From Candidatus Saganbacteria bacterium CG08_land_8_20_14_0_20_45_16 (GTDB taxonomy: Bacteria; Margulisbacteria; WOR-1; O2-12-FULL-45-9), in NCBI GenBank assembly GCA_002774365.1, contig PEYM01000148.1, positions 692-64,691 on the forward strand: a stretch of DNA of 64,000 bases, in the 5' to 3' direction. Made by a program: the position numbers and the translations under genes. The notes beneath the pieces were generated by a model. The model was not told where the DNA came from and did not search any database. It saw only the letters and a list, made by a program, of their open reading frames with translations. Every line of letters starts with the position of its first letter. Position 1 is the stretch's first letter. Below are positions 7,662 to 62,559 of this stretch, piece by piece.

Positions 7662-7856
7662 ATGGTTAAAGTAGAATTGAGAAAGGGCGAACCGATCGAA
7701 AAAGCCTTGCGTAAATTTAAGACAAGACTTAAATTTGAAGGGGTCTTGGACGAAATAAAGGATAGAGAGTATTACGAAAAGCCCTCTCAGCGCAGAAGAA
7801 AACAGCGCGAAGCCGCTAAGCGCAGAGAGGTCAAAAGACGCAAAGAGGCTGAATGA
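7662..7856 (+). CDS. rpsU: 30S ribosomal protein S21
   Basis: 64 aa, basic C-terminal tail. MVKVELRKGEPIEKALRKFK matches the S21 N-terminus. Confidence 0.9.
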   Translation: MVKVELRKGEPIEKALRKFKTRLKFEGVLDEIKDREYYEKPSQRRRKQREAAKRREVKRRKEAE

Positions 7857-28847: not shown

Positions 28848-31414
28848 CCAAGATGACCGAACCGTCTTTAGCCGGAACAGTTTCAAAGTACCAAGAACTA
28901 GCGAGTAAGATCGTTAGTTTTTTTAAAGGATTAAAATATCCCAAAATTATCTTTGGTTTGCTGATTTTGGCTGTTATTTATTACGTCTTTGTCTTTTCAG
29001 CTTATTCTATTTTGCTTCAGGAAGTATTTTATACTCAAGCCTTTGATTCTGGCATTGATGACCAAGGGATCTGGCTGATCTCGCACTGGCTTAACCCTTT
29101 GGTAACTGTACGGGGGCTTAATATTTTTGGTGACTCCATAACTTTTTACCATATATTCATCGCGCCGTTCTTTTGGCTTTGGAACAATATTAATTTGCTT
29201 TATATTATTCAGAGTATTTTTATTGCCTTGGGCGCGATCCCGCTTTTTGTTTATGCTCGGCAAAAATTAGGAAGCAATTTTTTAAGCTTAGTGGTAGCGG
29301 TCTCTTTTTTGTTATACCCCGCTTTGCAAAACCTAAACCTTGATCAATATCATTCTGAGGCGATCGCGGTCTTTTTTATTGTTTTGACTATCTTTTTTTT
29401 GCTGAAAAAAAACTTCTCCTTGTTTTATGCTTTTTTTATTTTTAGTTTGATTGGTAAGGATGAAATCGCGGTCACTGGCGCGTTTATTGGGCTTTTTTTG
29501 TTGTTATTTGATAAAGAAAAAAGGCATGGTTTAATTATCTTTGGGCTGAGCGTTGGCTGGTACCTGCTGTGTTCCAGGGTGATGATGCCGCTTTTTAATG
29601 GGGTAGGGGTTTTTAGCCACCAGCCGGTAACTTATTCCCACTGGTATCGAGGCTTAATGGACAATCTGTTAAACCCTGGTTTTTACTGGCAAAATTTTCT
29701 GCATCCAGAGAGCCTGGGTTATTATTTAGGGCTTTTCTTGCCTTTGGCTTTTATTCCTTTGCTTAGTCCTAGGCTGATGTTTTTGCTTTTTCCGGCTGTG
29801 GCGGTCAATGTTTTAAGCGGCACCGGGTATTTGCGCTCAATCCATTACCATTATAATTACATTCAAGCTGCAGTGATCTTCTTTGCTTTGATCGAAGGGC
29901 TGGCCCTGATCAAGAACAGTCGTTGGCTTAGGAAAATAGATGGCACTTACAAGGTGGCAGCATTAGGTGTTATTGTCGTAGTTTTTTCCCTGGGTTGTAA
30001 TAATTTGTGGAGTGCCTTGCCGCTCAACCGGCATTTGACCATGTTGACTCAAAAATGGGAGCATTTAAAGTCGCGTGAGATCAGGGTAAAACAAAAAGCA
30101 TTGAGCTTGGTGCCGCCAGGGGTCAAAGTTGCGGCCTCTTATTCCTTGGTCCCGCATTTGACCCATCGCCAAGAGATATATATGTTCCCCAACCCCTTTA
30201 AGTCTGTTTTGTGGGGACAGTGGTTTAAGGAGGGGGAGGGGGCCCCGCCAGCCGAGGGCCATGTTGATTATGTGGTGATCGATTTTACCAATCATGCTAA
30301 AGAAGAAAAAATGATTATTAATTATCTTTGGGCGTCGCCTTATTTTAAGACGGTTTTTCAAGATGGACCGCTTTTGGTGTTGGCCCGGACCAATAATTGC
30401 TTAGCCCAGGAATATGGGGCCAACTATACCCTTTATGACCTGACTAGCCAGGTCAGCTTATTTGATGATTTTGCCAAGGTGCTCAAGGTTAAGAAGCAGG
30501 GCAGGCTGAGCATGTTTTATTTTCCAGATTCTAATTACTATTTGCGCAATCTTTTGGGTGAGGAGATCCTGCTTGTTGACAAAAAGTTTGCCTTGGAGAT
30601 CTCGGGCTATCTTTATTTGCCAGAAACAGCTAACTATATCTTTAGGATAAAAAGTGAGGCGCAAGTTTTACTTGAGATCGACAACCGCTTTGCTGACGCG
30701 GCCTCGGATTCCTTGAATCTACGAGAGGGCTTTCATAAATATAAGATTAAATATATAAATACAGGCCAGCGCTACGACCTAAAGATATCTCTACTTGGGC
30801 CTGATGGCAAGGAAATGATCATTCCTGATAAACATTTGCTGCGCGACTATCAGCCAGCTTTTTTTGCCAAATTTGAGCAAGCTGACCGCCAGCAAAGGGC
30901 GGAGAGAGAAAGTTTCGCGAAAAAACAGACCAATCTTGTTGTTGACGGCGGGTTTGAGGATGTTTTAGGGGACAAGCCAAAAAAATGGCAGCTGGAAAAG
31001 TGGCAAGAGGAGGATTCTCTCTGTTTTTATCAAGTGACTGCTAAAACTAAAGCTGAAGGGAAATTTTCCGCTCTGATCGATCAGCGCCAAGGCTTGGCTG
31101 ATTCCCGCTGGGTTCAAGAGATCGCGGTTGAGCCAGACACGGAGTATGTTTTATCTGGCTGGATCAAGACCCGTGGGGTTTTGAGCAAGGGAGCAGGGGC
31201 ATATATAGCAGCCGAAAATACTAACCTTAAAACTGAGGAGCTTTTTGGCACCAATGATTGGCGCTATTTTGAAGCTAAAGGGAAAACTGGTTATGAGCAA
31301 GAGAAAATTAAATTTACGTGCCGGCTGGGTGATTACGGCCGGCCCAATATTGGCCAAGCATATTTTGATGGGATATCTTTAAAGCGGGTTTTGCCTGATC
31401 AGGGACATTTCTAG
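28841..31414 (+). CDS. DUF2079-family polytopic membrane protein fused to a C-terminal CBM4_9-like carbohydrate-binding domain
   Basis: 857 aa. The N-terminal ~520 aa are multi-TM and DUF2079-like (GIDDQGIWLISHW..., ALGAIPLFVYA). The C-terminal ~170 aa match the CBM4_9 pattern (NLVVDGGFED...W...TEYVLSGWIKT...FDGISLKRV). Confidence 0.55.
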   Translation: MVAKMTEPSLAGTVSKYQELASKIVSFFKGLKYPKIIFGLLILAVIYYVFVFSAYSILLQEVFYTQAFDSGIDDQGIWLISHWLNPLVTVRGLNIFGDSITFYHIFIAPFFWLWNNINLLYIIQSIFIALGAIPLFVYARQKLGSNFLSLVVAVSFLLYPALQNLNLDQYHSEAIAVFFIVLTIFFLLKKNFSLFYAFFIFSLIGKDEIAVTGAFIGLFLLLFDKEKRHGLIIFGLSVGWYLLCSRVMMPLFNGVGVFSHQPVTYSHWYRGLMDNLLNPGFYWQNFLHPESLGYYLGLFLPLAFIPLLSPRLMFLLFPAVAVNVLSGTGYLRSIHYHYNYIQAAVIFFALIEGLALIKNSRWLRKIDGTYKVAALGVIVVVFSLGCNNLWSALPLNRHLTMLTQKWEHLKSREIRVKQKALSLVPPGVKVAASYSLVPHLTHRQEIYMFPNPFKSVLWGQWFKEGEGAPPAEGHVDYVVIDFTNHAKEEKMIINYLWASPYFKTVFQDGPLLVLARTNNCLAQEYGANYTLYDLTSQVSLFDDFAKVLKVKKQGRLSMFYFPDSNYYLRNLLGEEILLVDKKFALEISGYLYLPETANYIFRIKSEAQVLLEIDNRFADAASDSLNLREGFHKYKIKYINTGQRYDLKISLLGPDGKEMIIPDKHLLRDYQPAFFAKFEQADRQQRAERESFAKKQTNLVVDGGFEDVLGDKPKKWQLEKWQEEDSLCFYQVTAKTKAEGKFSALIDQRQGLADSRWVQEIAVEPDTEYVLSGWIKTRGVLSKGAGAYIAAENTNLKTEELFGTNDWRYFEAKGKTGYEQEKIKFTCRLGDYGRPNIGQAYFDGISLKRVLPDQGHF

Positions 31415-31418
31415 ATCG

Positions 31419-32864
31419 ATGAAAGAGAAAACAGGTGGATTAAGCTTTTGGTTTTGTTTCTTTTTTATTTTTCTTTTTGCTTTATTTTTTTTCTTTTCCT
31501 TTGCCCACATCAGTTTGACCGCTTATGAAAGCCTGAGTTTTCCTTTTGCTGAGGATCAGGCGATGTTTCATCAATCTTTTTGGAATTTGACGCATAATGG
31601 TTCACTGGCCATTACAACAGCCTTAAATAATTATAATAATGTTTTTGGCATGCACTTTACCCCGATTTTGTTTTTCCTGGTGCCGATCTATCTTTTGAAT
31701 CAAAGCCCTGTCTCCCTTATATTGATAAGCATTATGAGCTTAGCTTTATCGGGGATTTTTATCTTTTTATCTACCCATAAACTTGCTGACAACCCTTGGC
31801 TAGCGGGAGCTGTGGTTTTTCTCTATTTCACTTATTTGCCGCTGACCTTTTTAGCTTCTCAGGGCTTTCGTTATCTAATCATAGGCCTTTTCTTTTTGTC
31901 TGGGGCTGTCTTTTTTTATCTGAGTAAAAGGTTTTGGCCAATGTTTTTATTTCTGATTTTAACCTGCCTGTGCCGAGAAGATATCTCGTTGGTCGTGATT
32001 GGTTTTTCTCTCTTAGCCTTGTTTGATAAACGCTCAGCTCGCTGGCGGTATTGGCCGGCCATTTTGGGCCTTTCTTATTTTATTCTTGTGGTCTCTTGGA
32101 TAATGCCTAACTTAAATGGTACGGGGGGGCAAGGGGGCTTGGGCTTTGCCGCTTATAGCGCCTTTGGTGATACCCCATTGAAAATCTTAATCTCTATGGT
32201 GACGAATCTCCCATTGCTCTATCAGATGCTGATTATGCCTCATCATTTTATATTTTTTAGCGAGCTTTTCTCGCCACTTTATTATTTGCCGCTGCTCTCT
32301 CCTTGCTGGGTGTTACTTCCCTTTGCTTATTGGCTGATCTTGCTTTTGTCGTCAGTTAGCGCGCATGCCAATGCGCAATATTGGTATGTAGCACCGCTTC
32401 TTCCTTTTATTTTTATTGCCTTAGCAGCAGTGTTAAAGAAGATTTTGGTTTGGGGTGACAGAAGGTGGCGCTTGGGAACATTGGGGGTGAGCCTGATTTT
32501 AGTCTTGCTTATGCACTCGGCTTATCTTGGGCCAGGAGGACGTAGATTATTTAATGGTTTCCACGCAAGATCAAACCATCAGTTAGAGAGAGTGCAGAAG
32601 TTGTTTGACCAAATTCCCAGGGGAGCTTCAGTCATGACCCAGGCCAATTATCTGCCTTATCTCTCGAGTCGTAGGGTCATTGTTCTGCCACGGCCTGATC
32701 CAGCAACTGACTATCTGGTTGTTGATGCCACTGATTTTTGGTGGCCTTTGCCTAAACCAGAAATTGACAAATTCCGCATTGAAATGATTGTCTCTGGCCG
32801 ATATAAATTGTTAGATGAACTTGAAGGGATTTCTCTTTATAAACGACAAGAAGGTAAAGAATGA
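31419..32864 (+). CDS. DUF2079-family polytopic membrane protein (paralog, no lectin domain)
   Basis: 481 aa, multi-TM. Motifs parallel the previous gene (AEDQAMFHQSFWNL...FGMHFTPILF). Confidence 0.5.
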   Translation: MKEKTGGLSFWFCFFFIFLFALFFFFSFAHISLTAYESLSFPFAEDQAMFHQSFWNLTHNGSLAITTALNNYNNVFGMHFTPILFFLVPIYLLNQSPVSLILISIMSLALSGIFIFLSTHKLADNPWLAGAVVFLYFTYLPLTFLASQGFRYLIIGLFFLSGAVFFYLSKRFWPMFLFLILTCLCREDISLVVIGFSLLALFDKRSARWRYWPAILGLSYFILVVSWIMPNLNGTGGQGGLGFAAYSAFGDTPLKILISMVTNLPLLYQMLIMPHHFIFFSELFSPLYYLPLLSPCWVLLPFAYWLILLLSSVSAHANAQYWYVAPLLPFIFIALAAVLKKILVWGDRRWRLGTLGVSLILVLLMHSAYLGPGGRRLFNGFHARSNHQLERVQKLFDQIPRGASVMTQANYLPYLSSRRVIVLPRPDPATDYLVVDATDFWWPLPKPEIDKFRIEMIVSGRYKLLDELEGISLYKRQEGKE

Positions 32865-34621
32865 TAGCAAGGGTAAAAAGCTTTTTTCTAATAGTAGATA
32901 TGCGTTTTCTTGTTTTTTATGGGTTGTTTTTTTTGTTTCCGCACCCCTTGGCTAAAGACATTAATTCAATAGTTTTTCTGAGCTTAACTTATATTTCAGT
33001 AATAATTTTATTTAAGCGATTTACGGATTTGACTAATTTTGAGATTCTGTTTTATGTTTTACTGGCTATTGCTTTTTCTGGGCTTCATCTTCTTCACACC
33101 CAAGAATATGGTCCAACTGGTTTAGAAGAAAATATGAAGCGGGTCATTAATGGACCTTGGCGCTATCGTATTCTGGTTCCAGAGTTGATGAATTTTTGCC
33201 AATGGTTATTTAGAGTAGGGCAAATGGGCCTTAGGGCTGGCTTTCGCTTCTTTTTCCTTTCTCAGGTTTTTTTGACTAGCTATCTCATGCTCAAAAACGT
33301 CTTAAAGGCGAAAAGAGAAGTTTCGTTTTTTCTCCCTTTGCTCTATTTGTTTATGATCCCCTTTTCTTGGTTTCTTTTGTATGAGACTGATTTTCCGGAG
33401 ATTTATTTTTCGACTTTGTTGCTAATAGCGATTGTTTCTGGCCGGCGGCCACTTATCTTTCTCTCTTTTATCCTCGGGCTGCTTAATCGCAACAGTATTA
33501 TCTTTGGCCTCTTTTTCTATTTTTTTTACACTATTTTTTCTCTGCCGTTAAGCTTTGCTGATCTAAAGAAGTTATTAATTGAGAAGCGCAGAGACTTTTA
33601 TTTGATGGGTGGTTTAGTGTTGAGCATACTTGTTTTTAGGGTGGTGACAATTTGGCTTTATGGGGAGACATATTTTTCCGAGGACAAATGGCTAGAGAAT
33701 TTGCGTTATTGGCAATACTATTGGCACACTTTTTGGTCTGGTGCTAATTGGGTTGTCAATTGTTTTTCTGTTGGGGACCGCTGTGTTTCCTCTTTTCCTC
33801 GCTTGCTTTCTTTTGCCGGCGGGATATATTTGCTCTTGTTTTTATTTTGGAAAAAATTGGACAAAAAGTTTGCTTTTTCGTTCTTGGGTGCGGGGATTGT
33901 CTTTGGCTTTTTCTTTTTTAGGTATTGCAACCTTTTTGAGACCAGAGGGGCCTTTGTGCTCCTCCCATATTTTATTTATGCCTTGGGCCAAATGTTTTCT
34001 GGAGAGCAAAGGAATTGGCAGAGCAAGGATTTTTATCGGTTTTTTTGTTTCTTAGTGATTGCAGTTGTAATTGTTACTATCCCTCTTTTGGCTGAGGGGA
34101 TTTTGGTAAATTATAAAGCGGCGCGTACGCCTGTCTTTTCTCAGTTTGACTTTAACAATGGTTCTTTGATCGGTGTTAGGAAAGTTTTAGTGGCAGGTGA
34201 TTTTACGGTTGGCTTAACCAGTCGCGAGTCTGAGCCAGGAGACTGTCTTTTGGTGGCTGGAGCTGGCTGTGGCTATGCGGCAATTAATTTGCCGGTTAAA
34301 TCTAGGACAGAGTATCTTTTGTCTGGAGATTTCAAGACCAAAAATTTGGCTCTCAAGGATAAGAAAGTCGGTTTTGGGGTCTTTTATCTCCTTGAATTTA
34401 AGTACCGCAAATACTTTGCTAATGATGATAACAGTGATGATACGATCTCGCACCAGCATCTAGGTGATTTGCAAGGGACAACCGATTGGCACAGGGTGGA
34501 AGATCGCTTTAGGACAGGCGATGATACCCAGATGGTCAGGATTGCAATCGGTTTTGGTAATCAGGGGTGGGGTTCTGGAGAAATCTGGGCTGATAACATT
34601 ACTTTAAAAGAACTAAAATAG
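32861..34621 (+). CDS. Polytopic membrane protein with a C-terminal CBM4_9-like beta-sandwich domain
   Basis: 586 aa. About 10 TM helices. The C-terminal ~170 aa (TEYLLSGDFKT...GTTDWHRVEDRF...GEIWADNITLKEL) have the same architecture as the 28841 C-terminus. Confidence 0.45.
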   Translation: MIARVKSFFLIVDMRFLVFYGLFFLFPHPLAKDINSIVFLSLTYISVIILFKRFTDLTNFEILFYVLLAIAFSGLHLLHTQEYGPTGLEENMKRVINGPWRYRILVPELMNFCQWLFRVGQMGLRAGFRFFFLSQVFLTSYLMLKNVLKAKREVSFFLPLLYLFMIPFSWFLLYETDFPEIYFSTLLLIAIVSGRRPLIFLSFILGLLNRNSIIFGLFFYFFYTIFSLPLSFADLKKLLIEKRRDFYLMGGLVLSILVFRVVTIWLYGETYFSEDKWLENLRYWQYYWHTFWSGANWVVNCFSVGDRCVSSFPRLLSFAGGIYLLLFLFWKKLDKKFAFSFLGAGIVFGFFFFRYCNLFETRGAFVLLPYFIYALGQMFSGEQRNWQSKDFYRFFCFLVIAVVIVTIPLLAEGILVNYKAARTPVFSQFDFNNGSLIGVRKVLVAGDFTVGLTSRESEPGDCLLVAGAGCGYAAINLPVKSRTEYLLSGDFKTKNLALKDKKVGFGVFYLLEFKYRKYFANDDNSDDTISHQHLGDLQGTTDWHRVEDRFRTGDDTQMVRIAIGFGNQGWGSGEIWADNITLKELK

Positions 34622-34627
34622 GACATT

Positions 34628-35839
34628 ATGCAGGCAAACAAAATCGCAGTGGTGGGGGGCGGGATAAGCGGGCTGGTTACAGCTTACTATCTATTAAAAA
34701 AGGGTTATCAAGTTACCCTCTTTGAAAAAGAAGCAGAGCTTGGTGGTTTAGCCTCTACCTTCCCAGTTAAGGGGACCCGCCTGGAAAAGTTTTACCACCA
34801 CTTTTTTGCCCAAGATACGCTAGCCCTTGAATTGATAGAAGAATTGGGCCTTAAGGATAAATTTTATTGGGCTTTTCCTCGGATGGGCTTTTTTAGCAAG
34901 GGGACAACTTACCCATTTACCACGCCACTAGACCTTTTAGCTTTTCCCCCTCTCTCCTTACCAGAGCGGCTCAAGTTTGGCCTTTTTAGTTTCAAGGTTA
35001 AGCAAGAAACAGATTGGCAGAAACTGGAAACAAAAACAGCTAAGGAGTGGTTGATTGAAAATTTGGGTACAAATATTTATCAAGAGGTTTGGCAGCCGCT
35101 CTTGCGGGCAAAGTTTGCTGAACACGCCGACAAAATCCCTGCTTTTTGGGTTTGGGGGAGGCTCAAAGCAAGAGGAAAATCTCGCTCAGCTTTTGGCTGG
35201 CGGGAAAAACTTGGTTATTTAAAAGGGAGCTATCAAGTCTTAATTGACGCGTTGGCCGCTAAGATTACAGGGCTCGGCGGAGCAATCAAACTCGGCCAAG
35301 AGCTTAAAACCTTTCCCCTCCCTGGCTTTGATCGGACAATTTTGACTATCCCTCAAGTTAGCCAGGACTTTGGTCTTAAATACCTGGGCAATATTTGTTT
35401 GATCATTAAGACCAAACAGCGTTTGTCAAATTATTATTGGCTTAATTTGGCAGATAATAGTATTCCCTTTTGTGTGATTGTTGAGCATAACAATGCTTTT
35501 GATTCCCCGCTTTATCAGGGGGAGCGTTTTCTCTTTCTCTCTAGCTACCTTGACCACCAGAGCGATTTTTGGCAGCTTACCGACCAAGAGCTTTTGACCA
35601 CTTATCTAGCTGGGTTACAGAAGATCTACCCAGCTTTTAAGCGTGAAGCACTCCTTGATTATTATGTTTTTCGAGAAAAGTTTGCGCAACCCTTGCCAAC
35701 TTTGGGCTATTCAAAGAAAGTCCCTCCTTTCAAAATTAACGAAAAACTTTATCTGGTCTCTAATATGCAAATCTATCCAGAAGATCGCGGGATCAATGAT
35801 ACAATTAAATTAATATGCAAATTTATCGAACAGTTCTAA
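34628..35839 (+). CDS. FAD/NAD(P)-binding flavoprotein (amine-oxidase / UDP-galactopyranose-mutase-like)
   Basis: N-terminal dinucleotide fold VVGGGISGLVTAYYL...TLFEKEAELGGLAST. Embedded among glycosyltransferase genes. Confidence 0.6.
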   Translation: MQANKIAVVGGGISGLVTAYYLLKKGYQVTLFEKEAELGGLASTFPVKGTRLEKFYHHFFAQDTLALELIEELGLKDKFYWAFPRMGFFSKGTTYPFTTPLDLLAFPPLSLPERLKFGLFSFKVKQETDWQKLETKTAKEWLIENLGTNIYQEVWQPLLRAKFAEHADKIPAFWVWGRLKARGKSRSAFGWREKLGYLKGSYQVLIDALAAKITGLGGAIKLGQELKTFPLPGFDRTILTIPQVSQDFGLKYLGNICLIIKTKQRLSNYYWLNLADNSIPFCVIVEHNNAFDSPLYQGERFLFLSSYLDHQSDFWQLTDQELLTTYLAGLQKIYPAFKREALLDYYVFREKFAQPLPTLGYSKKVPPFKINEKLYLVSNMQIYPEDRGINDTIKLICKFIEQF

Positions 35840-37251
35840 CTTTAGCCTTAATTTTAGTAGTGCAGGCGGTGCTTTTTCAGCCATATTTAAGCGAGCCGTT
35901 TGAACGCGATGAGGGGGCTTATGCTTACATTGCCCAGCGTCTGTCGTCGGGCGAGCTGCCATATCGAGATAGTTACGATCATAAGCCACCAATGATCTAT
36001 TTTATTTACGCGTCAGTCTTTAAGTTCTTTGGGACCTCAATGGCCGCGATCAGGTCTTTTACCTTGCTTGTTTCGCTGTTAACAACCTTAGCCGTCTTTT
36101 TCTTGGCCTGGCTTATTCTCGGTCGCTTTGGGGCAATTGTTTCTGCTTTGCTTTACGCTTTTTATGCTGGGAATCCTTACATTCAAGGGACTTCTGCTAA
36201 TACTGAGACCTTTATGGTCTTACCAATGGTCCTGTCTTTGGCTTTTTTCTTATTGGCTTTGCGGCGAGAGCAGAAACTCGGCTGGCTCTTTTTAGCTGGT
36301 CTATGTTCTGGCTTAGCCGTGATGATCAAGCAGGTTGCCCTGCTTAATTTTTTGGTTATTCTTGGTTATTACGTTTTTATTTGTCTGCGCCAGCGCAAGG
36401 ATTGGTCAGGGGTTGCGGCGCTACTAATTGGCTTAGCCGTTGTGCCAATGCTGACAGTTGGATATTTTTTCCTTAAGGATGCCTGGTCAGCCTTGCTTCA
36501 TGGCTACCTTTTAGAAAACCTGCTTTATGTCTCGCGCAAGGTTTGGGTCTGGCCGAGGCTTTGGCTGGTGTTACAAGAACTTGGGCTTTTGTGGGGCCTA
36601 TCAGCTCTGGCAATTATGCTTATCTGGTTTAACGAAAAAGAGGATAAATTTAAAATTATTCTAGCTTGGGCCCTGGCCTCGGGTTTAGGGGTTTTTATGG
36701 GACGAGCCTTTTACGGCCACTATTTTATTCAAGTGGTGCCAGCGCTGGCAATTTTAGCGGGCTACAGCCTCTTAAAAATTGCTGGTTCAAATTGGCGCTT
36801 GGTGCTTTTGGCCTTTTTAGCCCTGATCTTTTCCATGGACCTCTTTAGTCGGATCTCTTTTGGCTTATTATCACCTGAACTGATCTCGCAAAAAAAATAT
36901 GGGATCAACAATTTTGTCGTGGCAGGGCAGGTTGCGGAGTTTATCAAGCAAAAAACCCTGCCCAAAGACAGGCTCTTTATTTGGGGGGCAGAGCCCGAGG
37001 TTTATTTTTATAGTCAACGCGCGGCCGCCTCGCACTATATTTATTATTATCCATTACTATACAAAGATAAGAAATCTCAACAAGCCAGGCTTGCTCTGCT
37101 GACAGAATTAAAAGAGGCACCGCCCGAGTATATAATCTGGGTTGAGCCGAGGGTTGTTTATGGTCCACTTTTGAATTATGTTAAAGCTGGTTATAATTAT
37201 CTGGCTAGTTTTGGCCGCTGGCAAATTTGGCGGCGAAAGAGGATTAAGTGA
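35815..37251 (+). CDS. ArnT/PMT-family GT-C glycosyltransferase (GT39/GT83-like)
   Basis: 478 aa. First periplasmic loop has a DEGAY acidic motif and a YDHKPPM motif typical of ArnT/PMT enzymes. About 11 TM helices. Confidence 0.65.
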   Translation: MQIYRTVLTLALILVVQAVLFQPYLSEPFERDEGAYAYIAQRLSSGELPYRDSYDHKPPMIYFIYASVFKFFGTSMAAIRSFTLLVSLLTTLAVFFLAWLILGRFGAIVSALLYAFYAGNPYIQGTSANTETFMVLPMVLSLAFFLLALRREQKLGWLFLAGLCSGLAVMIKQVALLNFLVILGYYVFICLRQRKDWSGVAALLIGLAVVPMLTVGYFFLKDAWSALLHGYLLENLLYVSRKVWVWPRLWLVLQELGLLWGLSALAIMLIWFNEKEDKFKIILAWALASGLGVFMGRAFYGHYFIQVVPALAILAGYSLLKIAGSNWRLVLLAFLALIFSMDLFSRISFGLLSPELISQKKYGINNFVVAGQVAEFIKQKTLPKDRLFIWGAEPEVYFYSQRAAASHYIYYYPLLYKDKKSQQARLALLTELKEAPPEYIIWVEPRVVYGPLLNYVKAGYNYLASFGRWQIWRRKRIK

Positions 37252-48355: not shown

Positions 48356-49920
48356 TGAAGGGTCGTCAAGCGATTATTATTGGTGCCGGCCCAGCCGGGT
48401 TAACTGCTGCTTATGAGCTGCTAGACAAGACTGCGATCAAACCCATTGTTGTTGAGAAAGAAAGTTGTGTTGGCGGGATCGCCAAAACCCTTAATTATAA
48501 AGGCAACTGCATTGATTTTGGCGGGCACCGCTTTTTTTCTAAGTCTGATCTGGTGATGGCTTGGTGGCAAAAGTTCCTGGTCATTCAAGATTTTCCTGAC
48601 CAAGAAGAATTAAGGCTCAAGGTTAAGCGTAATGATTACCAGCAAAAAAATATTGACGGTGACCCAGAAAAAAAAGACCTAGTTTTCTTAATTCGCAGCA
48701 GGGTTTCAAGGATCTATTACCTGCGGCGTTTCTTTGATTATCCCCTGGCTTTAAACGTTAATTTTGTTAAGAATTTAGGCGTGGCCAGACTTTTTAAAAT
48801 AGGCTGGAGCTATCTTTGGTCGCGCCTGGTTCCACGCAGGAAAGAGCGTTCCTTAGAAGACTTTTTAATTAATCGGTTTGGCCAAGGCCTGTATGAGCTT
48901 TTTTTCAAGGATTATACTCATAAGGTGTGGGGCCGGCCAGCCCAAGAGATTGATGCCCAGTGGGGTCGCCAAAGGATCAAGGGGCTTTCCATTGTTAAGG
49001 TGATTAGGCACGCGATTTTTAAAGAAAAGCAAACAGAAACAAGCTTAATTGAAAAGTTTTACTATCCTAAATATGGGCCAGGCCAATTGTGGGAAGAGGT
49101 GGCCAAACAAATTGTTGCCCGCGGCGGCACGATAATGCTTAATAGCGAGATTGTGAGCGTGACCTCGACGCCAGGATCGCCTGGCCGAATTAAAAATGTT
49201 GTGGTACGCTCAACAATTGATAATTCTGAGACGACCTTAGAGGCTGATTATTTTATTTCTTCAATGGCCCTCAAGGACTTGATCAATTGCTTGACAGGAA
49301 CCTTGCCGCTGGCGGTGCGAACCGTGGCCAGCCAGCTGCCTTACCGTGATTTTATTACTGTTGGTTTGCTCCTTAAGAAACTCAAGCTGCAAAATAAGAC
49401 TCAAGTAAAAACGGCCAATGACCTGGTCCCAGATAATTGGATTTATATTCAAGAAAATGATGTGCAACTTGGCCGGCTACAGATTTTTAACAATTGGAGC
49501 CCGTATTTATTAAAAGACAGCAGTTTGGTTTGGCTTGGCTTGGAATACTTTTGTGATCAGCAAGACGCGCTGTGGCAGATGAGCGACGAAGCGCTTATCA
49601 AGTTTGCGACTAAAGAGGTGGAAAAGCTTGGCTTAGTTGATCAAAAAGAGGTGCTTGATGGGGTTTGTTATAGAATGACCAAAGCTTATCCTGCTTATTT
49701 TGGTTCGTATGATCAGATCCAGGTTTTAAGAGATTATTTGAACCAAGTAGATAATCTTTATCTGATTGGCAGGAACGGCCTGCACCGTTATAATAATATG
49801 GATCATTCAATGTTAACAGCGATCAAGACTGTGGAGAACATCTCTCGTGGTTTGACGGATAAGAGTGGCATTTGGCAAATAAATGCGGAAGGAGCTTATC
49901 ATGAAGCAAAAAGGGATTAG
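48355..49920 (+). CDS. FAD/NAD(P)-binding flavoprotein oxidoreductase
   Basis: 521 aa. [15 protein letters not shown]...[10 protein letters not shown] dinucleotide-binding motif. TGATG overlap with the UbiA gene. Confidence 0.6.
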
Positions 49921-51598
49921 CACAAGCACAGATCCAGGTCCTTTTTCTTTTAAGATGGCTTTTGGGCTGGCTTTTTTTGCTTCGCTGCTGGTGACTTTGG
50001 TGGTTTTCTTTAATATTGTTTTGCGTTTGGATATTTTTCACTGGGACGAATCGCATCATGCTGTTTATGGGTTGTGGGTATCTCAAGCCTTGCGGGCCTT
50101 TGATTGGTCAGGATTTTGGTACTGGACCAATCATCAGGCTTATTGGCCCTTTTTTCATTCTTGGTTGCTAGCGATTTTTTTCTTGTTTTTTGGAGTTAGC
50201 GCCACCAGTGCCCGTGGCTTAAGTGTTTTGATTTTCTTTGTTACTGCCGTACTTACTTACTTGGCTGGCAGCAAAATTTTAGACAAAAAAGATTGGCGGC
50301 CTGGCCTCTTGGCCACCGCGCTGGTCTTAACTTCACCATTAATGATCTCTTTTGCGGCTCAAAATATGCTGGAGGGTTTAGGGGGGGTGGAGCTAATTGC
50401 TGCTGTCTACGCTTATCTAATTGCCAAAGAGAAAAAGCAATGGTACTGGTTTCTTTTGCTCGGCGGCTTGCTGGGACTCACCGTTATCACTAAATATAAT
50501 TATGCGGTGCTGATCATTGCTTCTTTTGTGGTAGTTGATTTGCTTGATATTTTTGAGCTGCCTAGGGTTGCGGGCCAGGCTAAAGCTATTGCAAAGCCAA
50601 AATCCAAGCATCAGTTAGTTAAAACCGTGCCAACTTTTTTGGGCTTTGAAAAAGCGCCGCTTTTGGATTGGCTGCGCCAAACTGGAGTGACGGCCCTGCC
50701 GATTTTATTGATCACCCTGCTGTGGTTTTTTGGTGCTGATGCGGAGAGAAAATGGCAAATGCTTTTATGGACCAAGAGCGAGGTGGCAGGGGGCCAGGCA
50801 ACTCTGAGCGGCTTTTGGCAGAATTTATTATTTTATCCTCAAGCCATAGTTAATGATTTTGTGCTATCTTACTGGTTGGGGCTACTGGTCTTACTGGCCA
50901 ATCTTTGGCTGTTGCTTGGCCTTAAATGCCGCCGGATCTTAAAGCTTCAAGCAATTGTTTGGACAACCCTGTTGCTCTCGATCTTTGTTATTGGCAATAA
51001 GATGAACCGGAACATTTATTTTTTGGCGCCGGCTATTTTTATGATTTTTTCCGCCTCGTTTTTCTATTATTTCGACTTGGCTAGAGCAAAGCTGAAAAAT
51101 TACCGTCTTCTTTTTCTGTTGCTTTTGCTTGGTCTGCTGGTTTTAGCTGGCTTGGCTTGGCCCAGGGCGGTTAAGATGTATAGTGGCGATATTCAGGACA
51201 TTAAGCATGGCCTTCATGTTAACCGAGAGACCAAAGAGCGGGTGGCAGACAGCTTGCGATTTTTTCGTGACAACATTCCCCAGACAGGCTCAATTTCTGC
51301 TGGTAGTTTGTATTATGTGTCGCCTTATGTGCTTTACATTTACTTTCGAAACTGGCAGGCCCCGGTTTTGACTGCTTTTCAAATGAGCGACCCAAATTTT
51401 GCTAAGAGCGACTTTTTTATCGCGCTGGAATACCAAGACACCCAAAGGTTCGAAGCCCCAATGCTGGAGTGGCTAGCTGTGCTTAGGAAGAACGAAGCCG
51501 CGCAGCAGCTTCAATTGTGGCGGCAGAAATCCTGGCCTGACCTTGGCTTAACGGCAAAAATCTATATCAAGCCAAACTTGAATCTTTTAGGCAGATGA
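49901..51598 (+). CDS. GT-C-fold membrane glycosyltransferase (ArnT/PMT-like)
   Basis: Start at ATG 49901 (RBS GGAAGGAG at 49888-49895) is preferred over track 49883. Multi-TM. Acidic motif WDESHH in the first extracytoplasmic loop. Confidence 0.55.
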
Positions 51599-54748: not shown

Positions 54749-56176
54749 ATGCGTTGGCTAAAAATTATCATGACAGATCGCTTAGCCATTGGGATTATCA
54801 TTGGTCTAATTATCTTTGGTGGGTTGACCCCGGTCTTTAGGGCCATGGTTGATGTGCCTTATGTTGGGGCTTATTTTTATGAAATGAAAACAGTCCTGCC
54901 GCGGCTTAACCAGCAGTTTTTTATGATCTCAGAGGTTGATTGTATTGGTTATTATTCTTATTTGCGTTCCTTGATGATCGATCATGACCTTGAGTTTCAA
55001 AATGATTTTACGCTCTTTGGCTGGCCCAGGCGGGCGCAGGAAAAGACCGACCTTGGCCATACAACCAATCCTTGGTCAGTTGGCCCGGCTATTTTGTGGG
55101 CGCCGGCTTTTGTGTTAGCGCACCTTTACTCCCTCCTGCTTAATGCCGTGGGACATCCCGTGCCTTTAAACGGTGTGTCTTTTGTTTATGATTTTTTTAT
55201 TGTGGTGTTTTCGATGGGCTCTGGTTTGCTCGGACTTATTTTTATTTATAAATTTTTGCGTTTTTTCTTTTCTGCGGCCTTGAGCCTGACAACTGTGCTA
55301 GCTTTTTTTTATGCTTCAACTTTGGTCTTTTATCAGTTTCATGAGCCGACCATGTCTCATGTTTTGAGTGTTTTTGCGGTTTCAGGCTTTATATATTTTT
55401 GGTACGATAAATTTTTGCAAAAGCGTAGCGGCGATTGGCTCTGGCTAGGTGTCTGGGCCGGCCTAATTATTTTGATCCGTTCGCAAAATATATTTTTTGT
55501 GCTTGGCCCGCTTTTGGCCGAAACTATAGTTATGTTCAAGAGAGAGCAATCTGTTGGTTTTAGGTGGCTGCTGGGTCCTGCTCAATTGTTGATTATGGCC
55601 TTTTTATGTTTTATTCCGCAAATGCTGGCTTGGAAGTTTTTGTACGGCTCTTGCTTTACTATTCCCCAGGGTGAGGGTTTTATGAAATGGGGCGCTCCGC
55701 AAATTCCGTCCTTGCTTTTTTCAACTAATCATGGCTTGATCACGTACACCCCGATTATGCTTTTTTGTTTAATTGGGTTTCTCTTAGTTAATCGAGTTAG
55801 CAAGAGGGAGCAAATGCTGGCTGGCACATTTTTCTTGATCTTTTGTTGTGAGCTATATATTAATGCAGCTGCCAGTGATTGGGGGGCTGGTTGGGCTTTT
55901 GGGGCGAGGCGGTTCTCTGCCGGCGCGATCATGTTTGCCTGGGGGTTGGGGATGTTCTTGCGTTGGAGCAATTATCGTCAGTGGTTGCGTTACCTGGTTT
56001 TATCAGGTGTGGCCTTATTAGTGATTTTTAATTTGCTCTTTTATTTTCAATGGGCTTACGGCCTGATCCCTCGGGGAGAAGCCTTGACCTTAACTCAATA
56101 TTTTTCCGGTAAATGGCAGGCTTTAACCCTTTGGCTGACAGTCTTGCGCCAGATTTTTGAGGTAATTTTTAGCTAG
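54749..56176 (+). CDS. Hypothetical polytopic membrane protein (possible glycosyltransferase-like)
   Basis: 475 aa, about 11 predicted TM helices. No motif I can name confidently. Confidence 0.4.
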   Translation: MRWLKIIMTDRLAIGIIIGLIIFGGLTPVFRAMVDVPYVGAYFYEMKTVLPRLNQQFFMISEVDCIGYYSYLRSLMIDHDLEFQNDFTLFGWPRRAQEKTDLGHTTNPWSVGPAILWAPAFVLAHLYSLLLNAVGHPVPLNGVSFVYDFFIVVFSMGSGLLGLIFIYKFLRFFFSAALSLTTVLAFFYASTLVFYQFHEPTMSHVLSVFAVSGFIYFWYDKFLQKRSGDWLWLGVWAGLIILIRSQNIFFVLGPLLAETIVMFKREQSVGFRWLLGPAQLLIMAFLCFIPQMLAWKFLYGSCFTIPQGEGFMKWGAPQIPSLLFSTNHGLITYTPIMLFCLIGFLLVNRVSKREQMLAGTFFLIFCCELYINAAASDWGAGWAFGARRFSAGAIMFAWGLGMFLRWSNYRQWLRYLVLSGVALLVIFNLLFYFQWAYGLIPRGEALTLTQYFSGKWQALTLWLTVLRQIFEVIFS

Positions 56177-58374: not shown

Positions 58375-58463
58375 AATTTCCTAGATAACACATCGAAACA
58401 AAGCTAAGAGAACCCAGCTAGAGTTCAGTCAGTTGGGTTTTTCTATTTTAGGGAGTGGTAGGA

Positions 58464-60167
58464 ATGGAGATATTTGGTCTCAAGCTAAATTTTAATAATG
58501 TTTCAAATAGCCTCTCATCTATTGGTTCAGCTGTTAATGCCCTTTGGGCAGAAATTTTTGGTGAGTATGCGTATCTTCTACCTTTGGCCTGTTCCTCTTT
58601 TGTGATTGGTGGGATGCATGATCATGATGCTGGGGGAGATGCTGACCAGGTTGTGACAGATACAGGGCCTTATGATAGTGGGAGTGATGCTGATGGGACA
58701 AATCTAAATTGCGTGATTGGGGAGAGGCTTACTAATTATGACGGTCCGGAGGGGACAGAAGGTGTGGGGATTTGTCAGCCCCAGATTTTAGAATGTCAGT
58801 TGGTCGAAGGTGAGGCGACCTATGTTGAGATTCGCCCAGAGATTCAGCCTCAAACAGAAGAGATTGATAATGGTGTTGATGAGAATTGTGATGGCCATGA
58901 TGATGAGTGTCGCGTTGGGCAAAGTAGGGACTTTTATACTGGGCCAGAGGGGACAGAAGGGATTGGTATTTGCCGGGCTGGACGTGAGGAGTGTCGCTTA
59001 GGTGGTACCTGGGCTCGCTATGTTGAAGCTAGAGCTGAGGTGACTCCAGAGGAAGAGGAAATTTGCGGTGATGGCTTGGATAACGATTGTTTAGGTGATA
59101 GTCCTGGCGAGCTTTGGCTTCAATTCTATGGTAGCAGCAGCAGAAATGGGATTTATTCAGTTGAGCAGATAAGCGGAGGCTTTGTTGTTGCTGGCGAACA
59201 ATACAATAGTGCTACCAGGTATTCGCAGGCTTGGGTGGCCACGACGGATGAGGCAGGCAATGTCTTACGAGGAATTTTTATCTCGCGGGAGCTTGCACTG
59301 TATATGTATCCTTTCCAGGCAACTTCTATTAGGCGAACTGATGATAGAGGCTTTATTCTTACAACAGATGGCCTTGATGCTCGGCTGATTAAGACAAATT
59401 CGTCCCTGCTTGAGGAGTGGCACATAGATTTTGGTGATAATTTTACAGGGAACAGTGTCGTCCAATTAACTGGCGGTGGGTATGTTGTGGCTGGCTATGC
59501 TAGTTCCGTTGAGTCTGGGATGAATTATCCTGCTTGGCTATTTCGATCCAGTGAGAGTGGGGCCCAAGTTTGGAGCCAAAACTTTTTTAGTAGTGGCTAT
59601 TATGATTCTACTGGAAATTGTGTTTTGTCAGCCAGAGATGGAGGCGTTGTTTTTGCGGGGACCTCTTATCAAGTGTCTGGTGGGGCAACAACTGATGGGG
59701 ACGCCTGGGTTGTTAAGGCTAACAGTGATGGCGCTGAGGTCTGGCGTTACTTAATACGCGGTGGATTTGCCCAGCTAAATTATGTTGCCGCGACTAATGA
59801 TGGTGGGTATATCGCTGCCGGTTCCCAGGCGTCTGCAGGCGGGGCCAATAGAATGTTGTTAGTAAAATTAAATGCTGCTGGCGGTGAAGAGTGGAGCAAT
59901 AATTATGGTATTGGTTCATGGCTGAGCAGTGGTGTTTTTGTTCGGGAAATAACTTCAGAGGGATTTATTGCTGTTGGTGATTGTGATAATAATGTTTGTT
60001 TTCTTAAGGTTGACAGTGAGGGGATTGAAGAGTGGCGCAGAGTTTTCGAGATGAGCGATGATCACTTTGTCCGTGCCGCTGGAAGTGCGTCAAATAATGA
60101 GCTTATCGTTGCTGGACATATAAATCTTTTTGAAAACGGATTTTTAGAGCGTTTTTGTCTGGAGTAA
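58464..60167 (+). CDS. Secreted protein: novel 43-aa N-terminal module, two MopE-like Cys-rich putative metal-binding repeats, and ~40-aa beta-propeller-type repeats
   Basis: ATG 58464 with RBS GGGAG. Two Cys-rich MopE-like repeats (CDG..DE / GDGLDNDC). About six repeats follow (GGYVVAGY...DAWVVKANSDGAEVW). Confidence 0.5.
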   Translation: MEIFGLKLNFNNVSNSLSSIGSAVNALWAEIFGEYAYLLPLACSSFVIGGMHDHDAGGDADQVVTDTGPYDSGSDADGTNLNCVIGERLTNYDGPEGTEGVGICQPQILECQLVEGEATYVEIRPEIQPQTEEIDNGVDENCDGHDDECRVGQSRDFYTGPEGTEGIGICRAGREECRLGGTWARYVEARAEVTPEEEEICGDGLDNDCLGDSPGELWLQFYGSSSRNGIYSVEQISGGFVVAGEQYNSATRYSQAWVATTDEAGNVLRGIFISRELALYMYPFQATSIRRTDDRGFILTTDGLDARLIKTNSSLLEEWHIDFGDNFTGNSVVQLTGGGYVVAGYASSVESGMNYPAWLFRSSESGAQVWSQNFFSSGYYDSTGNCVLSARDGGVVFAGTSYQVSGGATTDGDAWVVKANSDGAEVWRYLIRGGFAQLNYVAATNDGGYIAAGSQASAGGANRMLLVKLNAAGGEEWSNNYGIGSWLSSGVFVREITSEGFIAVGDCDNNVCFLKVDSEGIEEWRRVFEMSDDHFVRAAGSASNNELIVAGHINLFENGFLERFCLE

Positions 60168-60170
60168 CCA

Positions 60171-61622
60171 ATGGAAGTTTTAGGGATAAACATTAATACA
60201 TCTTATGTTTCAAATGGTTTGAACTCGCTCAGTCGTTCAATTAGTGAGCTCTTGGCCCCGATTTATGACGACTTTGGTTTTTTGTTCCCGCTTGCCTGCA
60301 CGGGTAGTGCGGAGGCACTGCAGGCTGGTGAGATCTTCTGTTTTGATCCAACCAATGGTGACACTTGGCCAAGGGCTTTTCAGCAATATGTTACTCAGCA
60401 TTGCGAGGGGCAAAGTATTCCCGAAGGACAGCTTCACCCGCTTGCCAACCGATTTCGCCAAAGCATGATTAGTTATGTTGAGTCTCAAGGGGGACGGGTT
60501 AATTACCCGGGGGTTCCCAGCGGAGCTCATTTAATTAATTTTAGTATCAATGGTTTAAACACTATGTCAAACCAACCAACAACCCCTTGTCCTTCTGGTC
60601 AGATCCGGCTTTTTTATAATGAGAGTGAGGTTTGTAGCTGGCTTCCAGCTGTCCAAGCGTTTCAAGATGCTGGAGTGGCAGAGCCGGAAGTCCGTGATGC
60701 TGCGTCAGCGGCTGCACCAGCGCTAGTGGTTGATGCTGGGGCTGATAGTGGGACCTTGGCTGATGCTGGACCTGATGCTGATCTTGCTCCAGAAATTGAA
60801 GCGGGTATTCCTGATGCAGCACCACCCCCAAGGCCACGTCCCCCAATACCAGGCCCGTCTCTGCGCAGCAGCAGGAGCTTAGCTGATGAACGGTTGGATT
60901 ATTATCTAGAGGGAAGTATGCCTTTTGTCTTTTCGTTTGGCCAAGCCAGGGATCATGAGAGTTGGGGAGGCTTGTTAGGGCGTTTTATGCTGCAATATAA
61001 TATTCGGCCAGATCACCATGTAATTGGTATTTATGAGACCTCAACCCATAGTCTAGATTTAGACCAGTGGTCATCCCGCGATCGAGATGACATGGTTGGT
61101 ATTTACTACACTAATATTTCCAGATATGGCACCATGACTGGGCACCTTGATTTTATCAGTTCTCGTCAGAGTGAAATTGATGGGGTTGGGGATATTGTTG
61201 GCAGTACCAATACCTCTCTCTTCCAATTTGGCTTCAGGGGTTCAGAGTTCAATGACCATATATATTATGCCATGGATTTTGCTTTGGGGACCTATAATGA
61301 TGCTCATGCTGCTGCTGGCATTGTGCAAATTGGGACCAATTGGCTTTTTGGCCGCAATGACCGGTGGGGTTTCCTGGCCGACTTAAACATTTATGTCTTT
61401 GGCAAAACTGGTGTGCCAGAAGAAGAAGCGTATTCCCGGGTTGAGATGACTTTGCGAGCCAGGGCCTCCCTTAGGTTGAGTGGACCATGGCGCGCTTTGC
61501 TTGGTTTTGGTTGGGGCTTTGACCCTGATAATGGGACTTCGCAAGGCTTTTTGGTTATCGGGACTTCAGTGGGGGATATGAACCACCCAATCCAAACCCC
61601 AATGGGGCTAGGCAGGTTTTAA
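60171..61622 (+). CDS. Putative outer-membrane protein sharing the 43-aa N-terminal module; Pro-rich linker; C-terminal beta-barrel-like region ending in Phe
   Basis: 483 aa. Its N-terminus parallels the 58464 protein. It has an Ala/Asp/Pro-rich segment (PPPRPRPPIPGPS). The last ~250 aa alternate hydrophobic and polar residues and end ...GLGRF. Confidence 0.4.
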   Translation: MEVLGININTSYVSNGLNSLSRSISELLAPIYDDFGFLFPLACTGSAEALQAGEIFCFDPTNGDTWPRAFQQYVTQHCEGQSIPEGQLHPLANRFRQSMISYVESQGGRVNYPGVPSGAHLINFSINGLNTMSNQPTTPCPSGQIRLFYNESEVCSWLPAVQAFQDAGVAEPEVRDAASAAAPALVVDAGADSGTLADAGPDADLAPEIEAGIPDAAPPPRPRPPIPGPSLRSSRSLADERLDYYLEGSMPFVFSFGQARDHESWGGLLGRFMLQYNIRPDHHVIGIYETSTHSLDLDQWSSRDRDDMVGIYYTNISRYGTMTGHLDFISSRQSEIDGVGDIVGSTNTSLFQFGFRGSEFNDHIYYAMDFALGTYNDAHAAAGIVQIGTNWLFGRNDRWGFLADLNIYVFGKTGVPEEEAYSRVEMTLRARASLRLSGPWRALLGFGWGFDPDNGTSQGFLVIGTSVGDMNHPIQTPMGLGRF

Positions 61623-61770: not shown

Positions 61771-62559
61771 ATGGGTTTGGGTTATTTTTATCTAGGTGTT
61801 GGCGCGATCTTTCCAATTGATGCCCTCTTGGTTGGGGCTGCCACTGGTGGTTCCCTTGAGACTGTTTCTGACCCTATTGCCCGCTTGCTGCTTTGGCGCA
61901 AGAGAAAAAGGTTTAAAGGAGAGGAAAGAGAAGCCCTAGATGAGCTGGCAAAGGATTTGGCAGCAGCACAACTTGGAAAGGAGCAAGGCTTGGCGTTTAG
62001 TCAGTCTGAGAGAGTTTACGACCGTCAGCAAGCAGAATTGAGAAAAAACAGAGAAGAACTGATTAGTCTTAGACGAACAAACGAGTCGTTGACAGAGAAT
62101 CTAGGGAAAAAAGCAACAGAACTAGCAGAGGTTTCTTGTGAAAGGGAGGCTCAAGATAAAAAAATTGCTGGATTTGAAAGGACAAAAAAAGTTTTCTTAG
62201 AAGACAAAAGAAGTCTTCAAGAGCAAATTAAAGCAGTTACTGCTGAGTGCAAGGTCATGCAACACCGCCTTGTTGATATTCAAAGAGTGTTTGGTGATCT
62301 CTTTGCTGAGGGGAAAGCGGCTGATTTTGTTAGTCTTGACGATATTATGAATAAGTTAGAAGAGCTAGAATGTTGGTTCGCAAGTTTAAGAGAAGCTGAA
62401 GCCGACTTAAATCAGCGTGAAGCTGAGATTGAGGCGGATGAAGCTAGGCTAGAGCGAGAAGATCAAGATTTAATACAGGAAGGAGAAAGCTTAGCAACAG
62501 AGCGGGCTGATTTTGAAGAAGAGCGCCGAGCATTTGAGGGAGAGAAGGAAAGATTGTAA
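61771..62559 (+). CDS. Coiled-coil protein (N-terminal hydrophobic segment, then heptad repeats); ends at an in-frame TAA
   Basis: 262 aa. N-terminus MGLGYFYLGVGAIFPIDALLVGAATGG, then continuous E/K/R/L-rich coiled coil. Confidence 0.5.
   Translation: MGLGYFYLGVGAIFPIDALLVGAATGGSLETVSDPIARLLLWRKRKRFKGEEREALDELAKDLAAAQLGKEQGLAFSQSERVYDRQQAELRKNREELISLRRTNESLTENLGKKATELAEVSCEREAQDKKIAGFERTKKVFLEDKRSLQEQIKAVTAECKVMQHRLVDIQRVFGDLFAEGKAADFVSLDDIMNKLEELECWFASLREAEADLNQREAEIEADEARLEREDQDLIQEGESLATERADFEEERRAFEGEKERL

Follow-up and report, generated by a model that had tools for sequence, protein, structure and literature searches.

In double-glycine (PCAT) and NHLP/Nif11 leaders, a conserved amphipathic helix of 20–40 aa stands before unrelated cargo, and the boundary between the two is sharp, as it is in the element described here. 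The lipobox rule applied below to lipoprotein signals of the signal peptidase II (SPase II) type is of the PROSITE PS51257 kind, namely [LVI] at −3, [ASTVI] at −2, [GAS] at −1 and Cys at +1, with the consensus as in PMC8038367. A departure from it is known from the sister lineage of Saganbacteria: the cyanobacterial beta-propeller protein Ycf48 is lipidated at the lipobox CVSC, despite the deviant residue at −3, and the specificity of Lgt can therefore be loose (PMC8038367). Long bacterial signals have also been described in which the N-domain, in many cases an amphipathic helix, is followed by a charged turn and then by a C-domain (PMC2805444). Here we analyse a 43-residue module at the N-termini of two adjacent open reading frames, ORF A and ORF B, in a 64,000-nucleotide stretch of Candidatus Saganbacteria bacterium CG08_land_8_20_14_0_20_45_16 (contig PEYM01000148.1, positions 692 to 64,691; the window). 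The module is an orphan, leader-like or docking-like element that is a member of no family tested.

Both open reading frames, as read from the sequence, lie on the forward strand, as do all of their features given below. Copy A of the module, MEIFGLKLNFNNVSNSLSSIGSAVNALWAEIFGEYAYLLPLAC (58464..58592), makes up codons 1–43 of ORF A (567 aa from its ATG; 58464–60167), and copy B, MEVLGININTSYVSNGLNSLSRSISELLAPIYDDFGFLFPLAC (60171..60299), makes up codons 1–43 of ORF B (483 aa; 60171–61622). The two copies were compared by pairwise BLASTP and by shuffling, and copy A was also modelled with AlphaFold 2 (AF2). A preliminary description of this DNA had reported gap-free N-termini of equal length and about 40% identity that end at a Cys, and the BLASTP alignment upholds this: it contains no gap, 17/43 residues are identical and 31/44 are positive (E = 6e-9). 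Similarity between the two proteins ends at Cys43, and the remaining bodies have no significant BLASTP match to each other. The ungapped BLOSUM62 score of the pair is 101, compared with −30.6 ± 14.7 after shuffling (z = 8.9; 0/100,000 shuffles reach 101), and the best score of the module against 128 other N-termini is 13. Judged from its sequence, the module is real and homologous, and it is situated at the extreme N-terminus of both proteins.

The DNA copies of the module are 55% identical, with a longest exact match of 11 nt. Identity at codon positions 1, 2 and 3 amounts to 25, 30 and 16 of 43, respectively; third positions are randomized, and the conservation is therefore at the protein level, which indicates selection on the peptide. 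By this pattern, the pair is an old duplication kept alike at the protein level, and a recent DNA repeat is excluded. The same values bear on a different idea, that the module is the constant 5′ cassette of a family undergoing phase or antigenic variation and serves as a recombination substrate. Two adjacent surface-type genes with a common 5′ end would fit such a cassette, as would one metagenome contig that diverges inside module A. However, the identity and the longest match are far below the need of homologous recombination, and further copies or silent cassettes were not found in the window or in the retrieved loci. We consider this reading extremely improbable and reject it on the DNA identity.

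The remainder of ORF A shows what the module is attached to. Residues 44–80 (58593..58703) form a predicted disordered tether rich in Asp, Gly and Ser (D 22%, G 19%). Residues 81–215 (58704..59108) contain Cys-rich MopE-type repeats with a match to PF11617 (E = 1.2e-6; 29.1 bits against a cut-off of 27), repeats that also occur in the proteins P0003, P0004 and P0047. Residues 216–567 and the stop codon (59109..60167) encode a ‘TDGGYIVAG’/delta-60-like beta-propeller, assigned from homologues, the AF2 model and a PDB fold match. This propeller has 215 homologues, several of which are named delta-60 repeat protein or carry PF17164; its G/D/W columns are nearly invariant and repeat every ~50 residues. 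From about residue 220, the AF2 predicted local distance difference test (pLDDT) value exceeds 90, and the top PDB fold match is the CylK propeller (E = 1e-17). Nine Cys lie in the MopE repeats (residues 83–209) and four more in the propeller region. The MopE-like repeats and beta-propeller assigned to the first protein in the preliminary description are thus borne out by PF11617, the AF2 model and the CylK match, and ORF A is confirmed as a MopE-repeat/delta-60-type beta-propeller surface protein. In the AF2 model, which was built from a 121-sequence alignment, a single helix (residues 10–42; pLDDT 47–69) stands alone before about 100 disordered acidic residues (pLDDT <50 for residues 43–140) and then the folded domains, a layout that, as modelled, suggests a signal or anchor plus a tether.

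The homologues of ORF A begin differently. Among the 120 listed of the 215, 87.5% have a strong hydrophobic N-terminal peak of Sec-like or lipoprotein-like character, 12/120 pass the strict PROSITE lipobox rule and none (0/120) has the module. By sequence comparison, therefore, the module sits where ORF A homologues carry Sec or lipoprotein signals. A 726-aa MopE-repeat protein from the same sample series (P0003; L087 10001–12181), 45% identical to the MopE region of ORF A, also has an N-terminus without a hydrophobic core (MSCSGISGCASYYYNTIVTTF…), which may be another non-canonical N-terminus or a mis-called start. Its N-terminal sequence is unrelated to the module, and it was rejected as a third member.

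Within the module, residues 3–11 alternate between hydrophobic and polar and give a short beta-like start. Residues 12–33 are predicted to form an uncharged amphipathic helix rich in Ser, Asn, Ala and Gly, in which a heptad seam of V13, L17, I/L20, V/I24, L27 and I31 is kept in both copies with 4-3-4-3-4 spacing. In neither copy do more than 0.7% of shuffles attain the helical hydrophobic moment of this segment (p <= 0.007). Next comes an acidic/Gly break, which is G33-E34 in copy A and D33-D34 in copy B, and the module closes with the pattern [YF]x[YF]L[LF]PLAC.

This anatomy was compared with the known signal classes. A classical Sec signal cleaved by SPase I has a basic n-region, an h-region of ~10–15 hydrophobic residues and an AxA-type c-region, and the module does not fit this description. 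Its Kyte–Doolittle 10-aa maximum is 2.02 (A) and 1.76 (B), compared with a median of 2.91 in the 120 ORF A homologues. The sequence at the putative lipobox is P(−3) L(−2) A(−1) C(+1) in A and B alike, and every element of the PROSITE-type rule other than Ala at −1 and Cys at +1 is failed. The rule allows no D/E/R/K at positions −10 to −5, which are GEYAYL in A and DDFGFL in B, and asks for a Lys or Arg among the first seven residues, where A has K7 and B has none. The two negatives put forward from the sequence at the outset, that this is no classical Sec signal and that a canonical lipobox is lacking, stand on the Kyte–Doolittle and Hessa scales and on the PROSITE-type rule. Searches of the isolated modules against Pfam and NCBIfam at E <= 10 returned nothing but one meaningless viperin match, and searches against PDB sequences returned nothing better than E = 0.5. 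Double-glycine leaders, and those of the NHLP/Nif11 type, differ in that the module has L-A and not Gly-Gly, Gly-Ala or Gly-Ser at −2/−1, that no C39-peptidase ABC transporter is found among the neighbouring genes, that the cargoes here are large multidomain proteins and that no family model matches the module. The Ser/Asn-rich composition presumably gives the module some likeness to flagellar and type III secretion axial N-termini, but neither Flagellin_N, Flg_bb_rod nor any other such family was matched by the modules in Pfam or NCBIfam at E <= 10.

We tentatively favour the reading that the module is a lineage-specific N-terminal leader, processed at Cys43 and common to two co-translated envelope proteins. 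The N-terminal part, comprising the short beta-like stretch and 2.5 heptads of uncharged Ser/Asn-rich amphipathic helix, would serve in recognition; the acidic/Gly break would separate it from a short aromatic-hydrophobic stretch closing in the invariant P-L-A-C. The module would direct ORF A and ORF B out of the cytoplasm, and the mature proteins would start at Cys43, most simply through lipoprotein-type processing at a non-canonical lipobox. Processing would leave ORF A as a MopE/propeller protein anchored at its Cys by way of a tether, and ORF B as a Cys-anchored protein with a C-terminal membrane domain. We can only infer export, its route (an atypical Sec signal or other), cleavage and acylation.

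This leader reading is favoured because of the position of the module, the equal length of its copies, the boundary at an invariant Cys, the tether that follows the Cys and the homologue signals that it replaces; the amino-acid conservation with randomized third positions adds the argument of selection on the peptide. The bodies of both proteins, moreover, look extracytoplasmic: ORF A has Cys-rich repeats, and ORF B has four Cys, a Pro-rich linker and a terminal Phe. SPase II lipoprotein signals likewise occupy the extreme N-terminus, end their conservation at an invariant Cys with Ala at −1 and are followed by a disordered Asp/Gly/Ser tether and then folded domains; ORF A homologues are often true lipoproteins. 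Because the genome has the apolipoprotein N-acyltransferase Lnt and canonical lipoproteins, machinery for Cys-directed processing exists. The long signals with an amphipathic N-domain (PMC2805444) and the deviant lipobox of Ycf48 (PMC8038367) are two precedents in keeping with this reading. Ycf48 shares with ORF A a beta-propeller and a non-canonical −3 position, but it has a normal signal peptide, its Cys is Cys29 and only −3 is deviant, whereas the module deviates at both −3 and −2 and is without an h-region.

Several findings weigh against a leader processed at Cys43. The module has no hydrophobic core on either the Kyte–Doolittle or the Hessa scale: summed over the best 12-aa stretch, the Hessa scale gives +1.7 for A and +3.0 for B, compared with −1.9 to −4.3 for the comparison set of five canonical signals from the same window. 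The net charge of residues 1–42 is −2 (A) and −3 (B), and the short hydrophobic stretch is immediately preceded by acidic residues. The pattern [LVI][ASTVI][GAS]C admits neither the Pro at −3 nor the Leu at −2, and the Cys is residue 43, whereas the PROSITE rule wants it between 15 and 35. All of these features, except the placing of the acidic residues, also distinguish the module from SPase II signals, from which it differs further in having no basic n-region, in offering ~5–8 hydrophobic residues where an h-region is expected and in the 40% conservation of the 34 residues that precede the hydrophobic stretch, a conservation that ordinary signal peptides do not have. The surroundings and distribution of the pair add to these points. 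The neighbouring genes encode PurD, an EamA transporter, a coiled-coil protein and a Ser/Thr kinase, and none of those adjoining ORF A and ORF B is for a dedicated peptidase or transporter. By PurD, the organism is closest to metagenome-assembled genomes at 76% identity and to a WOR-1 one at 70%; in the latter, ORF A and ORF B are missing downstream of purD, where an ordinary lipoprotein is encoded instead. In all scans, the module is known in two copies only, whereas more substrates would be expected of a genuine sorting signal, and orthologues of the pair were absent from the data searched. A simple Sec/SPase II signal and a general sorting signal are both strongly disfavoured by the lack of a core, by the acidic charge and by the presence of the module on no more than two proteins.

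The heptad seam opens the way to an unlikely but serious rival, in which the module is a docking or assembly helix that is retained and not removed. Through the seam, A would pair with B, or both would pair with a common partner, in a short parallel coiled coil, and Cys43, lying in the same register in the two proteins, could staple A to B by a disulfide, with ORF B anchoring the ORF A propeller. Export, if any, would proceed via the same N-terminal segment, as in pilins and flagellar axial proteins. Such a helix is consistent with the conservation of the seam and its significant moment in both copies, with the one long helix predicted by AF2 and with translational coupling over 3 nt from stop to start, as expected of stoichiometric partners. 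The 40% identity, moreover, is well above what is usual for signal peptides and suggests that proteins recognize each other specifically through this segment. ORF B contains four Cys besides Cys43, which leaves Cys43 as the odd one; this parity argument fails in ORF A, however, which has 13 further Cys. The seam, at 19 residues, is short for a stable coiled coil, no likeness to known coiled-coil docking or axial families was found in Pfam, NCBIfam or the PDB, and docking would leave unexplained how two extracytoplasmic-looking proteins exit without a signal peptide. If the module is a docking helix, it would be a simple way of tethering a soluble propeller protein to a membrane partner.

The body of ORF B bears on another route of export. 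Residues 44–170 (60300..60680) form an N-domain with four Cys and, by searches and composition, no known family; residues 171–235 (60681..60875) form an Ala/Pro/Asp-rich linker, PPPRPRPPIPGP (A 23%, P 20%); and residues 236–483 with the stop codon (60876..61622) encode a C-terminal domain ending in GLGRF that is strand-rich by composition and a low-confidence AF2 model. Neither ORF B nor its halves had a credible match in Pfam, NCBIfam, PHROGs, PADLOC or PDB sequences, and no homologue was found in 5.8 billion proteins or in the GTDB genome collection; ORF B is an ORFan. The AF2 model, made without an alignment, shows long beta-hairpins over residues 383–467, and at pLDDT 36 it is unusable for a fold search. 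Several C-terminal segments alternate hydrophobic and polar residues. The C-terminal Phe is present, but GLGRF does not keep to the register of alternation that is usual in a beta-signal. Of the earlier picture of the second protein, the Pro-rich linker and C-terminal Phe hold; the beta-barrel finds no backing in a family or PDB match or in a model of this quality, and the C-terminus is a possible candidate for an outer-membrane beta-barrel as a guess only. A likeness of ORF B residues 336–402 (61170–61376) to VirB2 pilin (NCBIfam E = 0.005; PDB entries 8cue and 8exh E = 0.02–0.05) was judged to be a chance match of a Gly/Ala-rich hydrophobic segment and rejected.

The layout of ORF B, with its N-domain, Pro-rich linker and ~250-aa strand-rich C-terminus ending in Phe, raises the thought of type V secretion, with ORF A as a TpsA-like and ORF B as a TpsB-like protein, or ORF B as a small autotransporter, and the module as an extended signal peptide region (ESPR). 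A repeat protein that carries an N-terminal extension of 42 aa or more is a loose parallel, and long type V signals consist of an N-domain followed by a transition and a C-domain (PMC2805444). Like the module, these signals combine a conserved extension of amphipathic-helix type and a charged or turn-like transition with a C-terminal part that runs up to the processing site, and they occur on large repeat or surface proteins (PMC2805444). The module differs from ESPR in having an uncharged or acidic N-domain in place of a basic one, in lacking the normal hydrophobic C-domain and in matching no family. Pfam searches at E <= 1–10 with ORF A, ORF B, the isolated modules and the isolated halves of ORF B found no ESPR, two-partner secretion (TPS/Haemagg_act), POTRA, Omp85/ShlB barrel or autotransporter beta-domain, and a two-partner transporter and its substrate share no leader. 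A type V system is thus very improbable and largely refuted, and the suggestion in the preliminary description that the two proteins might be a two-partner-type export pair is left unsupported, as neither contains a type V domain.

The distribution of the module was assessed with a profile of 45 positions built from the two sequences. In a full HMMER scan of 1.84 billion representative proteins, in which ~40 bits are needed for significance and relatives as diverged as A is from B are borderline detectable, only the cluster of ORF B itself was a true hit; the cluster of ORF A is represented in this library by a C-terminal fragment. Five other hits at E <= 1e-5 were tandem-repeat or low-complexity proteins matched internally, and were discarded. 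The scan of Joint Genome Institute (JGI) metagenome contigs returned only the same locus (L006), the scan of viral contigs returned nothing, and hmmsearch --max, begun at each start codon of the window and of up to 93 retrieved loci, found no third copy. A word-indexed search with the alignment of the two modules, a short query for such an index, gave no candidate. Confinement to these two proteins in all scans is the first half of the outcome that the preliminary description had itself named as telling against its unrecognized sorting signal. Of that proposal, the non-canonical, leader-like placement stands, and the idea of a general signal is weakened, no third protein having appeared in any scan.

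Such a distribution is also what might be expected if the module were an evolutionary leftover of a partial tandem duplication or of 5′-end shuffling, with no dedicated role. The proteins may then be poorly exported, cytoplasmic or decaying lineage-specific ORFans. This reading draws on the presence of just two copies, adjacent and in one species, on the want of any ORF B homologue in the 5.8 billion proteins, on the absence of the pair from the nearest WOR-1 genome at purD, on strain differences that comprise three non-synonymous and zero synonymous changes in ORF B and on the contig that breaks within module A. However, the excess of identity at codon positions 1 and 2 over position 3, together with the absence of indels, points to long-term purifying selection, and the amphipathic pattern is kept even at residues that differ. 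Both ORFs, moreover, are long and intact, have good ribosome-binding sites and are identical in at least five independent assemblies. We regard a leftover without function as improbable.

A bolder form of the favoured leader processed at Cys43, which we think rather doubtful, is that a new class of bacterial N-terminal export or processing signal begins with this module, in which an uncharged amphipathic recognition helix leads into a minimal hydrophobic P-L-A-C site. Either Lgt/LspA of loose specificity or another Saganbacteria route would act on it, and current predictors would not see it. A shortfall of predicted signal peptides on Terrabacteria outer-membrane proteins has been reported (PMC10629564), and a new signal class, if true, would bear on it. 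More generally, if the module is an export or processing signal, envelope proteins of poorly studied phyla could carry leaders that escape standard predictors and lipobox rules, estimates of the secretome and lipoproteome of candidate phyla would be biased and the module, with its 43 residues, would make a compact tag that can be tested. Being confined to one operon in a single uncultured species, it is of limited general importance.

The start sites of both genes were examined. A Shine–Dalgarno-like AGGGAG (58447..58452) lies 8 nt 5′ of the ORF A ATG, and on this account ATG 58464 is preferred to GTG 58455; a Shine–Dalgarno-like GGAG lies 6 nt before the ORF B ATG at 60171. The same starts were chosen by independent gene callers in five metagenome contigs. 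An in-frame stop is located six codons 5′ of the ORF A ATG, and the coding region and stop of ORF A precede the start of ORF B; a longer N-terminus is therefore excluded for both proteins, and with it an alternative start or upstream extension that would supply a normal signal peptide. The ORF B ATG lies 3 nt past the TAA stop of ORF A in the same reading frame, only TAA CCA standing between the two genes (60165–60173). Stop-codon readthrough would fuse ORF A and ORF B, making module B internal; the common frame may be due to chance, at 1 in 3. The exact proteins are entered at NCBI as PIS28128.1 and PIS28129.1, both ‘hypothetical protein’ from Candidatus Saganbacteria bacterium, on a 66.7-kb contig.

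The locus is 100% identical in five metagenome contigs. A variant strain (L093; JGI 3300008095) differs at 3/2124 bases (60301, 60447 and 60496), giving T44M, right after Cys43, N93D and R109L; all three changes are non-synonymous and lie in the N-domain of ORF B, no synonymous change is present, and three substitutions are too few for dN/dS or a selection test. The 1.66-kb contig L006 (JGI Ga0066632_10038891; 1540–1661) is identical to the window as far as ORF A codon 21 (…SSIG; window 58464–58526) and then continues with 60 unrelated bases (GHRGNEWVKMAP*) to its end. This tail has no match in the window or the retrieved loci, and the divergence reflects a chimeric assembly or else a breakpoint within module A at the level of strains.

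Elsewhere in the window, canonical signals are present on an LptD-like protein, a secretin and two lipoproteins. One of these two, a lipoprotein-like paralogue (23031–24890), combines a normal hydrophobic signal, which failed the lipobox pattern, with a long Thr-rich linker and a DUF5122 beta-propeller; it is what ORF A would look like in ordinary form in this genome. Envelope-biogenesis genes at 7853–8929, 11326–13626, 14310–15752 and 17156–18966 (reverse strand) encode two LptF/LptG permeases, an LptB-like ABC ATPase, the LptD-like protein (weak LptD_N match) and Lnt. The Lpt genes and Lnt indicate a diderm with lipopolysaccharide transport and triacylated lipoproteins, Lnt itself marking a lipoprotein pathway in the genome. 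From the canonical signals and Lnt it follows that ordinary export and lipoprotein machinery is used, to which ORF A and ORF B are exceptions. A cluster resembling type IV pilus and type II secretion systems (38004–44874) encodes four prepilin-type N-termini, the first with an N_methyl match, a 553-aa PilM-like protein, two small membrane proteins and the secretin. At 25874–37251, 49883–51598 and 54749–56176, the window is unusually dense in large polytopic membrane proteins, which are of the PMT_2, DUF2079 and PTPS_related (ArnT-like glycosyltransferase) types; together with the accompanying GT2 and epimerase genes, they suggest extensive envelope glycosylation. An 875-aa TPR-repeat ORF listed at 8692–11319 overlaps the end of the LptF/G gene by ~240 nt, and its true start is probably further downstream.

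Downstream of ORF B, a 262-aa protein (61771–62559) is weakly hydrophobic at its N-terminus, contains a basic patch and a long coiled coil rich in Glu, and is followed by a 1081-aa coiled-coil Ser/Thr protein kinase that runs from 62605 to beyond 64000; the two correspond to L001 11607–15680. The last 2 kb of the window show a strong positive AT and GC skew because of purine-rich coding.

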